Source: Aeromicrobium sp.
GTDB lineage: Bacteria > Actinomycetota > Actinomycetes > Propionibacteriales > Nocardioidaceae
Length of the DNA: 33,260 bases
Assembly: GCA_023254755.1 (NCBI GenBank)
Contig: JALRKU010000385.1
Coordinates: forward strand, 1-33,260
Reading direction: 5' to 3'
Made by a program: the position numbers and the translations under genes. Shown here piece by piece: positions 13,315-25,818 of this stretch. Within the stretch, counting starts at the first letter, position 1. Each line of letters starts with the position of its first letter. A model generated the notes under the pieces. The model searched no databases. It was given only the letters and a program-made list of their open reading frames with translations, and was not told where the DNA came from.

Positions 13315-13486
13315 CGAGTCGCGACGTCGTCTGTCGGCCGAAGGTCGACGATCGCCTCGGCAGCAGGCGGCCCGGCGCAGCAGACGACCGCCCGGCGAGG
13401 CTGCCATCGGTGACTCGTCAGCGGAAACGAGTGACTCGTCACCGGAAACCCGTGACTCGTCAGCGGAAACGAGTGACTCGTCAGCG
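13309..13486. repeat. REP/MITE-like intergenic element: one inverted CGCTGACGAGTC end plus four 21-bp-period GTGACTCGTCA(G/C)CG units
   Basis: Units start at 13410, 13431, 13452 and 13473; an inverted copy is at 13309-13320; both ends overlap the TGA stops of the convergent flanking genes. Confidence 0.85.
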
Positions 13487-16306: not shown

Positions 16307-17098
16307 GTGCGCATCGCGACCTGGAACATCAACTCCGTCCGCAGCCGCATCGACCGCGTCGTCGCCTTCCTCGATCGCCACGACGTCGACGTGCTGGCAC
16401 TGCAGGAGACCAAGTGCCGCGACGACCAGTTCCCGGGCCTCGAGCTCGCGGGCATGGGCTACGAGTACGCACACCTCGGCCTCAACCAGTGGAACGGCGT
16501 CGCGATCCTGTCGAGGGTCGGGCTCGACGAGGTGGCGACGGTCTTCGCCGACGACCAGCCGGCGTTCGGAGACCCGCCCGTCGTCGAGCCCCGCGCGCTC
16601 GGCGCCACGTGCGGCGGCGTGCGCATCTGGAGCCTGTACGTGCCGAACGGCCGCGAGATCGGCCACCTGCACTACGACTACAAGCTCGCGTGGCTCGAGC
16701 GGCTGCAGGTCGCCGGCGCCGGCTGGCTCGCCGACGACCCGCAGGCCCAGATCGCGCTCGTCGGCGACTGGAACATCGCGCCGGAGGACGACGACGTGTG
16801 GGACATGGCGGCCTTCGAGGGCCTCACGCACGTCTCGGAGCCGGAGCGCGCGGCGTTCCGGTCGTTCGTCGACACCGGGTTCGCCGACCTCGTCCGCCCG
16901 TACACGCCGGGGCCCGGGGTCTACACCTACTGGGACTACCAGCAGCTGGCGTTCCCCAAGAAGCGCGGCATGCGCATCGACTTCGCCCTCGGCTCCCCCG
17001 CCCTCCAGGCCCGCGTCACCGATGCGTTCATCGACCGCGAGGAGCGCAAGGGCAAGGGCGCCAGCGACCACGCCCCCGTCGTCGTCGACCTCGCCTGA
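16307..17098 (+). CDS. xth: Exodeoxyribonuclease III / AP endonuclease
   Basis: MRIATWNINSVR, LALQETK, YVPNG, GDWNIAP, YTYWDY, GMRIDF, ASDHAPV. Confidence 0.96.
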   Translation: MRIATWNINSVRSRIDRVVAFLDRHDVDVLALQETKCRDDQFPGLELAGMGYEYAHLGLNQWNGVAILSRVGLDEVATVFADDQPAFGDPPVVEPRALGATCGGVRIWSLYVPNGREIGHLHYDYKLAWLERLQVAGAGWLADDPQAQIALVGDWNIAPEDDDVWDMAAFEGLTHVSEPERAAFRSFVDTGFADLVRPYTPGPGVYTYWDYQQLAFPKKRGMRIDFALGSPALQARVTDAFIDREERKGKGASDHAPVVVDLA

Positions 17099-17233
17099 CC
17101 CACCCCTCGTCGCCGGCGGCCGCGGGATCGGGACGGAGTTCACGCAGTTCCGCCGGGGCTGGACGGAATTCACGCACCGTGACCGTCGGGATCACGCAGT
17201 TCGGGTAGCCAGGGCTACCCGAAGAGCGTGATC
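17095..17233 (+). repeat. Left inverted repeat with REP-like 44-bp palindrome (17190-17233)
   Basis: GGACGGA(G/A)TTCACGCA at 17131 and 17161; GATCACGCAGTTCGGGTAGCCAGGGCTACCCGAAGAGCGTGATC. Confidence 0.88.
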
Positions 17234-17329
17234 TGCGTCGGATCCACAGGCCGAGCGCCCCGAAGGCGCCGTCCACAGCGCGCTGGCGAGACGTCCACGC
17301 GGGTCCTCGTCCGCGGCCAGGCTCGGACC

Positions 17330-18199
17330 ATGACGGTCCTGACCACGGCGCAAGCCCTCGCGACCCACGGTCGCGGCGCGGTGCGCCATCGCCTCGCGAC
17401 CCGCGCCTGGCAGAGCCCCACGCGAGGTGTCGTCGTCACCCACAGCGGACCGATCGACCGCGAGACGCGTCGTCTCGTCGTGCTGGCAGCGGCACCGAGC
17501 GGGAGCGTCCTCGCAGGTCTGACCGCGCTCGAGATCGCCGGGCTGCAGAACTTCGCCAGCGAGCGCGTCGTCATCGCCCTGCCCAACGGCGGGCGCAAGC
17601 CGCGCTCACTCACCGGGGTCGAGGCGCACCAGAGCATCCACCTCGGACCCGACGACGTCCTTCACCGCACACCGCCTCGCACCACACCCGCCCGATCGGT
17701 CATCGACGCTGCGTCGTGGACGACGTCCGACCGCCACGCGCGAGCGATCGTCATCTCGGCGATCCAGCAGGGCCTGATGTCCACCCACCAGATCAGGGAG
17801 GCGCTGCAACGACGTCCGACCCAGCGACGTCGAGGACTGGTGATCGAGTCCGTGCTCGACGCGGCGGGCGGGATCCAGTCGCTCCCCGAACGCGACTTCG
17901 AGGAGGCGCGGGTGCGCGCCGGACTGTCGCGGCCGATCCGGCAGCGCCGCGTGCAGGGGCCCGGCGGACGCTACTACCTCGACGTCTGGTTCGAGCTGGA
18001 GCAGCTGGCGGTCGAGATCCACGGCATCCCGCACCTGTCGGTCCAGCGCTGGGACGCCGACCTGTTCCGCGCCAACGAGATCGTCATCGGCGGAGACCGC
18101 ACCGTGACGTTCTCGTCGTACGCGGTGCGGCACGAGCGCGACGCCGTCGTCGACCAGCTGCGCCGAGCCGCCGCGGCCCCCCGCCCGCGCGCGGCGTGA
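17330..18199 (+). CDS. DUF559 / Vsr-like PD-(D/E)XK endonuclease-domain protein with AbiEi-like N-terminal region
   Basis: N-terminal RGVV...SVLAGLTALEIAG...TTPARSVIDAA typical of actinobacterial AbiEi-like/DUF559 proteins; C-terminal QSLPERDF..Q..YYLDVWF..LAVEIHGIPH..D..RAN; ATG 6 nt after CAGGCT. Confidence 0.8.
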   Translation: MTVLTTAQALATHGRGAVRHRLATRAWQSPTRGVVVTHSGPIDRETRRLVVLAAAPSGSVLAGLTALEIAGLQNFASERVVIALPNGGRKPRSLTGVEAHQSIHLGPDDVLHRTPPRTTPARSVIDAASWTTSDRHARAIVISAIQQGLMSTHQIREALQRRPTQRRRGLVIESVLDAAGGIQSLPERDFEEARVRAGLSRPIRQRRVQGPGGRYYLDVWFELEQLAVEIHGIPHLSVQRWDADLFRANEIVIGGDRTVTFSSYAVRHERDAVVDQLRRAAAAPRPRAA

Positions 18200-18203
18200 G
18201 GGG

Positions 18204-18310
18204 CACGGAGATCACGCACTTCGGGTAGCCAGGGGTACCCGAACTGCGTGATCCCCGTGGCCAACCTGCGTGAATTCCGTCCCCACCCCCGGGCGACGAA
18301 GGAGGGTCAG
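18204..18310 (-). repeat. Right inverted repeat with REP-like 44-bp palindrome (18210-18253)
   Basis: GATCACGCACTTCGGGTAGCCAGGGGTACCCGAACTGCGTGATC (40/44 identical to the left copy); TGCGTGAATTCCGTCC at 18267-18282 is the exact reverse complement of 17161-17176. Confidence 0.88.
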
Positions 18311-19614
18311 CTCAGCCAGGTGGGGCGCAGAGGCCAGGCGGCCTCGCCGGTCTGCGGGTCGACCTTGACGCCGAGGACGTGGTGCAGCTCGATCTCGTTG
18401 CGCTCGAACGCCAGGCGGGATCCGGCCATGTACAGGCCCCACACCTTGGCGCGGCCCACCGTGACCTCCTCGAGCGCGTCGTCCCAGTTCTCGACCAGGT
18501 TGCGGCACCAGTCGCGCAGCGTCATGGCGTAGTGCTCGCGCAGGTTCTCGACGTGACGCACCTCGAGGCCCGCGTCCTGGGCCGCGACCGTGATGCGTCC
18601 GACGCCGGTGAGCTCGCCGTCGGGGAACACGTAGCGGTCGATGAACGCGCCGGTCTGCGTGGTCTTGTTGTCGGGGCGCGTGATGCAGTGGTTGAGCATG
18701 CGGCCGCCGACCTTGAGCCGCGACTCGATGAACTGGAAGTACGCCGGGTAGTTCTTGACCCCGATGTGCTCGGTCAGGCCGATCGAGCTCACCGCGTCGA
18801 AGCCGGTCTCGACCACGTCGCGGTAGTCGCCGAAGCGCACCTCGGCCAGGTCCTGCAGGCCCTGGCGCTCGATCTCGGCCTGGGCCCATGCGGCCTGCTC
18901 GCGGGACAGCGTCACCCCGATGACCTTGACGCCGTAGTGCTTGGCCGCGTGGCGGACCATGCCACCCCAGCCGCAGCCGATGTCGAGCAGCCGCTGACCC
19001 GGCTTGAGGTCGAGCTTGCGGCAGATCAGGTCGTACTTCTCGTACTGCGCCTGCTCGAGCGTGGAGTCGAGCTCGGGATAGCAGGCGCAGGTGTAGGTCA
19101 TCGACGGACCGAGGACCAGCTCGTAGAAGCGGTTCGAGACGTCGTAGTGGTGGTGGATCGCCTCGGCGTCGCGCTTCTTGTTGTGCCGCAGGCCCTCGAA
19201 CGCGCGCCGCCACTTCGGCAGGTGCTCCTCGGCGGGCGGCGTCGGGGGCTTGAGGTTGCCGAAGCCCAGGCTGCGCACGATCTGCAGCATCTCCGGCGCC
19301 GACGGCACCTTGAAGCGCAGCTGGCTCATCAGCAGCTTCATCACCTCGTACGGGTCGCCGGGGTGCACGCCGTCGACCTCGAGGTCGCCCGACACGTAGG
19401 CGCGGGCGAAGCCGAGGTCACCGGGTGCGGTCATCAGGTAGGCGAGGCCTCGCTCGGAGACCAGGCGCAGCGTGATCGGCGAGTCCTCGGGTCCGGCCGT
19501 GCTGCCGTCGAAGGCCTCGAAACGGAACGCCAGGCCGTCCTTCATCAGGCGTTCCAGCGCCTGGGCGATCGTCAGCCGCGTGCCGAGCTCGGACTTGTCC
19601 TCGAGGAGAGTCAT
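18307..19614 (-). CDS. cfa: Cfa-family SAM-dependent fatty acyl methyltransferase (BfaB/TmsB-like, 10-methylene-stearate formation)
   Basis: GDLGFARAYVSG, AIHHHYDVSNRFY, SMTYTCA, LLDIGCGWG, SIGLTEHIG, FIDRYVFPDG, ENLREHYA; ATGA overlap with the upstream reductase. Confidence 0.92.
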   Translation of the reverse strand: MTLLEDKSELGTRLTIAQALERLMKDGLAFRFEAFDGSTAGPEDSPITLRLVSERGLAYLMTAPGDLGFARAYVSGDLEVDGVHPGDPYEVMKLLMSQLRFKVPSAPEMLQIVRSLGFGNLKPPTPPAEEHLPKWRRAFEGLRHNKKRDAEAIHHHYDVSNRFYELVLGPSMTYTCACYPELDSTLEQAQYEKYDLICRKLDLKPGQRLLDIGCGWGGMVRHAAKHYGVKVIGVTLSREQAAWAQAEIERQGLQDLAEVRFGDYRDVVETGFDAVSSIGLTEHIGVKNYPAYFQFIESRLKVGGRMLNHCITRPDNKTTQTGAFIDRYVFPDGELTGVGRITVAAQDAGLEVRHVENLREHYAMTLRDWCRNLVENWDDALEEVTVGRAKVWGLYMAGSRLAFERNEIELHHVLGVKVDPQTGEAAWPLRPTWLS

Positions 19615-23989: not shown

Positions 23990-24024
23990 GTGACTCGTCA
24001 GCGTGAACCAGTGACTCGTCAGCG
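23990..24024. repeat. Second locus of the 21-bp GTGACTCGTCAGCG repeat (2 units)
   Basis: GTGACTCGTCAGCGTGAACCA-GTGACTCGTCAGCG; the second unit contains the stop codon of the AIM24 gene (TCA at 24019-24021). Confidence 0.85.
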
Positions 24025-25818
24025 GGGTGAGGAGGTAGCGGGGGCGGGGTAGCCCTCGGACGGCTGCACGATGACGAAGCCCTGGCCGGCGAACGAGACC
24101 TGGATGGCCTCGCCCGAGCCGCGGCCGATCAGCGCACCGGCCGACACGCTGGTCTTGAGGCTGGTCTGCAGGTCGGCCGACCACGCGACGACGGCGTTGG
24201 TGTCGGCGTAGGTGGGGGCCTCGCCCGCGTTGAGGACGACCGGCTCGCCGTCGGTCGTGATGGCGACCCAGCCGGTGCCGCGCAGGGTCGTGTTGAACAG
24301 GCCGCCGGCCGCGATGCTGCCGCCCTTGACCCGCTCGACGTTCCACTCCAGCGACGACGAGAAGGCCAGCACGTTGGCGCCGTTGACCGAGATGCCGCTC
24401 TGGGTCAGCTGCAGCACGTGCACGTGCTTGGCGGTGTCGGCCAGGAAGACGTCACCCGCGCCCTCGACGCGCATCAGCGACAGCCCCTCGCCGGTCACGG
24501 CCTTCTTGAGGAACTTGGCGGCGCCGCCGCCCTGGTAGGCGAACGAGACGTCGCCCTGGTAGGCGACCATCGCGCCCTGCCGGGCCATGAACGGCTCGCC
24601 CACGCGCACGCGGAGCAGCCGATTGTTCTGCAAGGTGGCCCCGGCGCCCTGGACCTCGGCGAAGCGGCCGTCGATCAGGTCCCCGCTGATGCCGGGAGCC
24701 GCGACCGGGGCCTCGGTGGCGACCGGAGCGGGCGCGACCTGGGCCGGCGCCTCGAGGACGGGCTCGGGGGCCGGAGCGTCGACCACGGGCGGCACGGCCG
24801 CGACGGCGGGATCGGGAACGGGAGCGACGAGCGGTGCCGACACGTCCGGTGCCGAGACGTCGGCGGCAGGGGCGTCGGTCTCGAGCGCGCCGGCCTCGAC
24901 CGCACCGGTCTCGATCGGCTCCGGAGCGGGCTGCAGGTCGTCGACCGGGCCCCCGACGTCCGCGGGCGTGCCCTCGGCCTCGACGGGTGGGAGGACCGAC
25001 TCGAGCGGACCGGCCTCAGGCTCGACCGGCTCGGCAGGTCCCTCGGCGGACGGCGCGCCGTCGTACGGCCCGACCTCGGGCTGGACCGGCCCGGACTCGA
25101 CCAGACCGGAGTCGATGGGCCCAGAATCGATGGGCCCGGACTCGATGGGCCCGGGCTCGACCGCCGCGTAGTCCTCGGCCTCGTAGGGCTCGTCGTCGAT
25201 GGGTCCGGCGGTCAGCGGGCTGCGGCCGTAGACCGACTCCGACGCCGCCGCGGCAGCGTCCGGTGACGGTGAGAACCAGTCGTCGTCGGCGGGCCCAGGC
25301 GCTGGATCGGCGACCGGAGTCGCGTCGACGAGCGTGGACTCGACCCACGGCTCCGCGGCGGGCTGGGCGTCGGCGTCGATCGACGCGGTGGTCTCATTCG
25401 GCGCAGGCTCCGTGTCGGCCGCGATCGACTCGACGGGCTCGGTCGTCACCGGATCGCTCGCCGTCGGCTCCTCGGCGACCGACTCCTCGGCCACGGGCTG
25501 CTCCGCGACCGGCTCCTCGACCACGGGCTGCTCCGCGACCGGCTGCGCGGCGACGGGCTCCTCGGCCACGGGCTGGGCGCTCGCGGCGACGGCCTCGGCG
25601 GCCTTCTCCTCGGTGCGGGCGGCGTAGGGGTCGTCGGCGACGGTCTCCTCGACCTGCTGCTGCACGACCTGCTCGGCCTGCTGCGTGGCGGGCGGAGCGG
25701 TGGGCAGCGGCGAGATGGACTGGATGCCCTGGTCGGCGACGTGCTCGGTCCAGATGCGGCCGTCCCAGTAGCGGAGCTCGTGCTCGCCGGTCGGGTCCGG
25801 GTGCCAGTTGGCAGTCAT
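24019..25818 (-). CDS. DUF2510 - acidic Pro/Glu/Ala-rich linker - AIM24 domain protein
   Basis: N-terminal WHPDPTGEHELRYWDGRIWT (DUF2510); C-terminal ARQGAMVAYQG, AVTGEGL, GDVFLAD, GGLFN, GSGEAIQVSFAGQGFVIVQPSE (AIM24); GAGGGGG SD. Confidence 0.88.
   Translation of the reverse strand: MTANWHPDPTGEHELRYWDGRIWTEHVADQGIQSISPLPTAPPATQQAEQVVQQQVEETVADDPYAARTEEKAAEAVAASAQPVAEEPVAAQPVAEQPVVEEPVAEQPVAEESVAEEPTASDPVTTEPVESIAADTEPAPNETTASIDADAQPAAEPWVESTLVDATPVADPAPGPADDDWFSPSPDAAAAASESVYGRSPLTAGPIDDEPYEAEDYAAVEPGPIESGPIDSGPIDSGLVESGPVQPEVGPYDGAPSAEGPAEPVEPEAGPLESVLPPVEAEGTPADVGGPVDDLQPAPEPIETGAVEAGALETDAPAADVSAPDVSAPLVAPVPDPAVAAVPPVVDAPAPEPVLEAPAQVAPAPVATEAPVAAPGISGDLIDGRFAEVQGAGATLQNNRLLRVRVGEPFMARQGAMVAYQGDVSFAYQGGGAAKFLKKAVTGEGLSLMRVEGAGDVFLADTAKHVHVLQLTQSGISVNGANVLAFSSSLEWNVERVKGGSIAAGGLFNTTLRGTGWVAITTDGEPVVLNAGEAPTYADTNAVVAWSADLQTSLKTSVSAGALIGRGSGEAIQVSFAGQGFVIVQPSEGYPAPATSSPR

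Follow-up and report, generated by a model that had tools for sequence, protein, structure and literature searches.

A REPtron couples repetitive extragenic palindromes (REPs), or their hairpin-forming doublets (REPINs), to the gene of a REP-associated tyrosine transposase (RAYT). A low-copy chromosomal enzyme gene is framed by cognate palindromes, the repeats are species-specific, dispersed between genes and avoid divergent gaps, and the gene is mostly inherited at one site under purifying selection (PMC5581495, PMC3733652). Here we analysed a 33,260-nt stretch of Aeromicrobium sp. DNA (assembly GCA_023254755.1, contig JALRKU010000385.1, positions 1 to 33,260; the "window"), in which an open reading frame (ORF) of 289 amino acids (17330-18199, + strand) lies in the gap between the convergent genes xth and cfa. 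Cognate palindromes at the flanks, an over-represented dispersed repeat and a low-copy, vertically inherited chromosomal gene are all found here. A HUH/Y1 tyrosine transposase of the IS200 fold, as in RAYTs, is not, i.e. according to Pfam and fold searches, the chain consists entirely of an AbiEi part and a Vsr-like part. On balance, we favour the reading that this is a REP/RAYT-like partnership on an unrelated enzyme, an AbiEi-Vsr nuclease of hydrolytic fold, timed to DNA uptake.

Further differences from REPtrons are that the units are single imperfect palindromes of 56-60 nt, in some families tandem 21-mers, that several systems occur per genome, and that the promoter is common to competence genes. 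Many units start with GACG and end with CGTC and thus resemble the CGTC-tagged REPs, for which no transposase gene flanked by CGTC units was found (PMC3733652). In those, the tag is unpaired and occupies one end of an 8-9-bp stem, whereas here both ends pair, in stems of ~18-26 bp; the term "actinobacteri" is absent from the text of that paper as available.

Three other systems share parts of the protein or its setting. The nuclease fold and the catalytic pattern are those of the EDxHD homing endonuclease I-Bth0305I and of Vsr (PMC3239194). However, the DNA-binding part is AbiEi-like instead of NUMOD, there is no intron or intein, the presumed target frames the gene rather than being interrupted by it, and 37-38 different, unrelated sites hold homologues, in contrast to one conserved target. 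The N-terminal 180 residues have the fold of the type IV toxin-antitoxin (TA) antitoxins AbiEi and Rv2827c, which bind inverted repeats (PMC7319586), but here a nuclease is fused to it, the repeats occur on both sides and genome-wide, and no AbiEii nucleotidyltransferase toxin gene adjoins (neighbours of this locus only). YraN and CoiA are likewise PD-(D/E)XK nucleases tied to transformation (bioRxiv 10.1101/2024.02.06.579203), and yraN has the same promoter boxes here; the nuclease under study belongs to another family, which is patchy and multi-paralogue, each member being tied to its own repeat.

A nuclease gene and its cognate palindromes

Of 91 genus genomes, 41 gave homologue matches, between one and six apiece. 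A locus scan with a single protein gave nothing, and a tighter alignment worked. Matching repeats upstream and downstream of the gene were found at 99 of 108 non-redundant loci with full flanks (two loci with short flanks omitted), compared with 29 of 856 cross pairs and 8 of 917 ordinary ORFs. Counting one locus per site, the value was 33 of 37. Among pairs at the same site, the repeat was shared by none of the 117 with protein identities <60%, but by 33 of the 36 with identities of at least 80%, so that the clade-specific repeats co-varying with the protein that an earlier note on this DNA had proposed to look for do exist. For pairs at different sites with 65-80% identity, 30 of 89 shared the repeat. 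The repeat tracks the protein rather than the site and turns over faster than the site, with the two flanks changing in step during protein drift. Framing was also observed at all 18 examined loci of more distant paralogues in the genus.

The repeat of this locus is present at five further loci in the assembly, which is 71% complete. Its 16-mer has 10 matches in its own genome, and none of 116 other genus genomes has more than one. The repeat of a second clade has 13-27 matches in all four genomes whose gene it frames, and that of a third clade 18-61 matches in five of six such genomes; in one further genome (G131), a cluster of matches to a clade's repeat was then found to frame a gene. Solo palindromes elsewhere in the genome, another expectation of the earlier note, are thus real. 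All four non-coding repeat families found in the genome carrying the window (G000), with 47, 23, 6, and 3 loci, each frame one AbiEi-type nuclease gene. These values come from a census redone with an AT filter after GC-rich coding words had swamped the first k-mer census; in it, the remaining top family (82 loci) and further short words of the TCGAC type looked like coding noise on inspection by eye, and tRNA repeats were excluded. G000 contains six further distant paralogues of the AbiEi-type nuclease (contigs C87, C430, C438, C171, C7, and C50; L211-L216, L316), each framed by a different repeat, the match on C438 consisting of two overlapping pieces, which may indicate a broken gene. Within the window, solo tandem repeats of ~21 nt were noted at 13410-13485 and 23990-24025, each after a stop codon; they belong to the 47-locus family, which frames the paralogue on C87.

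Of 61 placed repeat sites (12 at contig ends omitted), 30 lie in convergent, 29 in co-directional, and two in divergent gaps, against a background of 220, 414, and 175, respectively, among 809 ORF pairs with crude strand calls. Orthologous gaps differ in whether they hold a solo, and families replace one another or stack there; the alignments were too diverged for exact ends, and one of four gave no syntenic empty allele. One convergent gap (L271, L272, L273 versus L274, L275) is empty in two genomes and has one to three palindromes in four others; these belong to two families, and some enclose a small gene. Just after polA, a pair of genes, one lipoprotein-like and one for a secreted protein, is enclosed by two solo copies of the palindrome of this locus (C79:2283-3772, L324). 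The pair has a TCCACA-like box upstream and is located elsewhere in relatives, a possible case of palindrome-mediated cargo relocation.

Via a DNA search of 101 genus genomes, 20 junctions with xth close to cfa were fetched. The nuclease gene occurred in none of the 20. Ten had gaps of −8 to 29 nt, i.e. were empty, and ten held 160-3371 nt of other DNA. What the empty junctions lack is a unit of 1208 nt that extends from stop codon to stop codon (17099-18306). On its left, it abuts the TGA of xth (exodeoxyribonuclease III; 16307-17098, +; TIGR00633, E 4.5e-73), and on its right lies the convergent cfa (cyclopropane fatty acid synthase family; 18307-19575, −; PF02353, E 7.6e-101). The earlier note had let the unit begin at the neighbours' stops. 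This position holds, but the CTGA of the terminal CTGACCC is the stop context of the neighbours and is present at empty junctions too. None of the 107 other homologous loci has xth and cfa as neighbours. In one relative (G099), a distant paralogue is framed by a repeat of which solo copies also lie in the xth-cfa gap, so that a system of this kind has colonised the gap independently. The gap is also an insertion hotspot in the genus, with unrelated genes (0.4-3.4 kb) and blocks of 9-19 kb in several genomes (L052-L060).

In a quick tree with SH-aLRT (Shimodaira-Hasegawa-like approximate likelihood ratio test) support only, protein clades largely follow the insertion site, and no two copies at different sites among the 108 loci exceed 75.8% identity. 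The gene therefore moves rarely; once at a site it persists, and losses are frequent. Convergent gaps, proposed earlier as the target, are favoured but not required, i.e. they account for 15 of 38 sites. At one site, the cassette of the same nuclease clade occurs in either orientation (L119, L123, L159 versus L072, L077, L102, L121, L134, L150), which is consistent with inversion between flanking repeats. A plasmid search gave no copy of a homologue. The phage collection yielded one weak match, a 29%-identical homologue on the unannotated 7.6-kb record MT837139.1, which may stem from a chromosome and not from a phage.

The gene, modules and palindromes described by the earlier note were all re-found at their coordinates. 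CTGACCC lies at 17095 and 18304, and TCGTCGCC at 17107 and 18292. The exact 16-mer occurs at 17161-17176 (+; half palindrome 2) and reversed at 18267-18282 within the right half palindrome (18263-18282, −), and a copy with one mismatch lies at 17131 in half palindrome 1, one repeat arm (17131-17150, +). The full palindromes are located at 17186-17240 (left; core 17190-17233) and 18201-18262 (right; core 18210-18253). Both are predicted to form hairpins, with fold z values of −6.95 and −8.05, and none of 200 shuffles folded equally well. The modules turned out not to be separate, since the 16-mer is the outer arm of one ~58-nt imperfect palindrome and the flanks consist of half copies stacked outside a full copy. 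The same stacking is seen at a solo on C108 and at the copy that ends C118. The 44-nt cores are identical at 40 of 44 positions, as noted before, but their inverted orientation is not distinctive, the direct alignment giving the same score; the inverted match covers 78 nt at 85%. Among 51 scorable loci, the two flanking palindromes are in direct orientation at 17 and in inverted orientation at 11; both orientations score equally at 12 loci, and the palindromes are unrelated at the other 11.

Two side observations concern these flanks. At position 18243 (coded run X2), the right flank is longer by one 22-nt module in one contig, possibly a repeat-array expansion in the population or an assembly error. 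An apparent 1085-nt excision joint (three coded runs) was rejected as a mapping artefact, because it carries the loop letters of the C108 solo copy.

Fold and conservation of the nuclease

The protein was predicted from its sequence to have an AbiEi-like N-terminus and a DUF559/Vsr-type nuclease C-terminus, and fold, PADLOC and profile matches uphold this. Its DUF559 match is under the Pfam cut-off (17.2 versus 20.6), and NCBIfam contains no family for it. Among 22 aligned members, DUF559 matches 16 and AbiEi_4 matches seven in Pfam, while PADLOC gives an AbiEi match for all 22. In the structure model (predicted local distance difference test score, pLDDT, 86.7), residues 1-179 resemble AbiEi 6y8q (Z 12.5, root-mean-square deviation 3.8, 171 residues aligned). 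The values for residues 182-286 are modest, i.e. Z 7.4 for the Vsr-like ngo0050 (3hrl; deviation 3.2, 86 aligned), 7.0 for the I-Bth0305I catalytic domain (3r3p; 4.7, 86 aligned), and 5.9 for Vsr, but ngo0050 also comes up in a profile search (E 7e-4). We place the AbiEi-like part at residues ~1-180 and the Vsr/EDxHD-like nuclease at ~182-286.

Of the 108 homologues, 107-108 retain E187, D218, E229, H235, and D244, and 97 retain H231. Assigned from order and spacing, without superposition, these residues have the order, and nearly the spacing, of the Vsr/I-Bth0305I active site (PMC3239194), i.e. both the fold and the E-D-x-H-D residues of the EDxHD/Vsr class are present. The median ratio of non-synonymous to synonymous substitution rates is 0.12 (33 same-site pairs), and the gene is under purifying selection. 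A homodimer via residues 233-284 is predicted with a score of 0.55, compared with 0.00 for the best control; this mark was reached by 20 of 30 solved homodimers and one of 23 monomers. The runs agree in at least 85% of contacts, with pLDDT values of at least 82. Modelling thus supports a homodimer via the nuclease domain, to which likeness to solved dimers may contribute. The AbiEi plus DUF559 family was found in 49 of the 151 phylum genomes searched, including the unpublished G133, G179 and G241 (G304 is in another tally), none of which is used in any flank or motif count.

Promoter boxes shared with competence genes

Two TCCACAG boxes precede the gene, a distal one at −87 (17243-17249, +), DnaA-box-like and common to competence genes, and a proximal one at −58 (17272-17278, +). 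TCCACA occurs at −150 to −40 in 99 of the 108 homologues, compared with 13 of 917 ordinary ORFs, and it is often paired at a distance of 28-30 nt. For the 75 loci with a clear start, a box lies at 56-60 nt in 50 cases and at 84-92 nt in 45. A scan of the whole G000 genome for the paired-box architecture gave 15 matches, 12 of them at 57-59 nt. These 12 comprise four AbiEi-type nuclease genes, comEA, comF, yraN, and ssd of the tad cluster, and four others, i.e. a DUF4192 gene, a sigma-70 factor gene, an amidase gene, and one match that is likely intragenic. The boxes before comEA, comF, yraN, ssd, the DUF4192 gene and the sigma-70 factor gene are on contigs C393, C415, C469, C400, C45, and C317 (loci L315-L321). 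ComF is a known competence protein; the identifications of comEA and comF score under the full-length NCBIfam cut-offs.

The association is conserved. The box lies upstream of comEA in 29 of 30 genus genomes, with the start chosen among in-frame candidates. Upstream of yraN, with a fixed start, it is found in all 30 genus genomes and in 25 of 27 genomes of the class (L355-L412; one unpublished locus omitted), the downstream controls being 1 of 30 and 0 of 27. Distant paralogues in the genus have it in 17 of 18 cases. The box resembles the actinomycete DnaA box (PMC4285127), and 58 of 108 upstream regions are at most one mismatch from the DnaA-box pattern used, compared with six of 1000 random windows.

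The nuclease gene has the same motif and spacing as the com genes, and because the same boxes precede comEA, comF, yraN, and tad-ssd, it is likely co-regulated with the natural-transformation genes, as judged from these promoter motifs. DnaA is the first candidate regulator of the paired-box genes, paired TCCACAG is a candidate actinobacterial competence operator, and the DUF4192 and sigma-70 factor genes are candidate new competence genes. The shared boxes were not part of the earlier note and are new here. In Micrococcus luteus, tad pili and ComEC are needed for transformation (PMC4322843), and no homologue of the known competence master regulators was found (PMC6667448); YraN works with ComM on transformation D-loops (bioRxiv 10.1101/2024.02.06.579203). 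The novelty of the paired motif was weakly checked, i.e. TCCACA is absent from the available text of the two M. luteus papers, and the literature search was not aimed at an actinobacterial competence motif.

Downstream of the boxes, a weak −10 hexamer is predicted directly before the start codon (17318-17323, +). Its A at −11 and T at −7 are kept in 63% and 72%, respectively, of the 75 homologues with a clear start, and only 11 of these have a Shine-Dalgarno-like word, so that a leaderless mRNA is predicted. Scans of the locus for sigma-70 promoters and terminators found none, including no U-tract terminator, and the sole match of an Rfam scan was at chance level (E 0.87).

Proposed mechanism and rival explanations

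Empty sites, framed homologues and palindromes linked to the family were all seen, so that none of the outcomes named beforehand as refuting the earlier note was encountered, and empty sites, solo palindromes and clade-specific repeats support the earlier proposal of a REPtron-like unit that uses a PD-(D/E)XK nuclease. That the enzyme itself spreads the palindromes is what we infer. In the partnership timed to DNA uptake that we favour, the nuclease gene would be switched on together with competence. The AbiEi parts of a dimer would recognise the arms of the palindrome, by analogy with AbiEi and Rv2827c, whose own promoters contain inverted repeats that they bind (PMC7319586), and the nuclease domains would nick their own palindrome near its unpaired centre. 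There is a precedent for a dimer covering ~60 bp of such a target in I-Bth0305I, which is dimeric, makes contacts over as much as 60 bp and cleaves a pseudo-palindrome (PMC3239194). Imported single-stranded DNA, where hairpins can form, would be the substrate and would supply folded hairpins as well as templates. Since a hydrolytic nuclease cannot join DNA, host recombination must do so, and RecA/ComM-type repair and recombination would copy the palindromes to new sites. A more far-reaching version, which we regard as possible but would not bet on, is that repeat-spreading elements of Actinobacteria captured a competence promoter. Each nuclease would then be produced during DNA uptake and would cut its own hairpin, either in the imported strand or in the chromosome, hairpins and sometimes enclosed genes being pasted into new gene ends by the transformation machinery.

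Several points limit, or weigh against, the favoured partnership. No target duplication was seen, though in comparisons with empty alleles of other species, in which the exact ends are blurred. Distant homologues in the phylum were framed at 8 of 25 loci (cross pairs 0 of 600) and carried the box at 5 of 25, compared with 3 of 25 controls (two short and two unpublished loci omitted). Words like the box also lie around dnaA, and the box may mark a wider DnaA- or DNA-stress-linked gene set, not competence alone. An in-frame stop lies within the aligned part of 6 of 108 homologues. One clade's repeat has 14 and 13 matches in G057 (99% complete) and G099, which have no close homologue, likely as orphans after gene loss. 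Another clade's repeat has 11 matches in G047 (58% complete), where no homologue was found, and G060 has the gene but six repeat matches, five of them at the gene. The genomes are related, so that the counts are not independent.

The same promoter evidence could mean that the nuclease is a domesticated transformation factor, which processes incoming DNA or D-loops at palindromes serving as species marks or cassette joining points, with the spread of repeats as a by-product. Purifying selection and the failure to find a plasmid copy agree with this, as do the small genes between two solos on C79 and at one site of G018, G118 and G107, and transformation intermediates are processed by two other PD-(D/E)XK nucleases, YraN and CoiA (bioRxiv 10.1101/2024.02.06.579203). 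Against it, the gene is patchy, with matches in 41 of 91 genus genomes compared with 31 of 31 for comEA and yraN; moreover, several such genes occur per genome, each with a different repeat, and 3-50 sites per family seem too few for a mark of the uptake or Chi type. We consider this explanation, the main rival, rather unlikely, though it deserves to be kept in mind. A self-repressing TA or defence gene of the AbiEi type, with the palindromes as operators or terminators only, would account for the fold, the PADLOC matches in all 22 members and the binding of inverted repeats in their own promoters by AbiEi and Rv2827c (PMC7319586). It leaves unexplained the matching copy downstream of the gene, the dispersed solos, the lack of a U-tract terminator and the neighbours, which are xth and cfa with no AbiEii toxin beside the gene, and is very improbable; autoregulation could be an additional role of the AbiEi part.

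The earlier note had also considered an insertion sequence-like unit with inverted ends, and an element of this kind or a free-standing homing endonuclease, moving itself as a unit between palindromes, would produce clean empty junctions, 37-38 different sites and one site with both orientations, and the fold is in common with I-Bth0305I. Neither fixed-orientation terminal inverted repeats nor near-identical copies at different sites were found, however: the ends are not consistently inverted, identities across sites stay at or below 75.8%, and clades largely follow the site. The target is not one conserved site, and plasmid and phage searches gave no match and one weak match, respectively, so that the idea of an insertion sequence did not hold up and the whole explanation is improbable. 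Least probable of all, in our view, is that another enzyme or host recombination alone spreads the repeats and the nuclease merely collects them. This would fit the repeats without a close gene in G057 and G099 and the different families that accumulate in, or displace one another from, the same gaps, but not the one-to-one pairing of repeat families and nuclease genes in G000, nor a repeat that tracks protein identity even across sites. The operator-only, self-moving and passive explanations thus fit worse than either a transformation factor or the REP/RAYT-like partnership.

No literature linking the AbiEi-DUF559 family to repeats was found, subscription journals and bioRxiv supplements being outside the coverage, and a repeat-spreading partnership for this enzyme class is apparently undescribed. 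It would be a repeat-plus-enzyme system of the known kind with a new enzyme, and categorically new if the link to transformation holds. The many natural pairs of nucleases and palindromes differ in specificity and might yield nickases that are specific for a sequence or structure, and the paired box could be used directly as bait to pull down a regulator. If a competence promoter was indeed captured, the pair of TCCACAG boxes would be the first competence operator recognised in the class. The partnership would represent a second, independent origin of the REP/RAYT arrangement, on an enzyme unable to join DNA, and would suggest what a large, uncharacterised family of Actinobacteria probably does. 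It makes testable what maintains systems of a repeat plus an enzyme, and what regulates competence in Actinobacteria.

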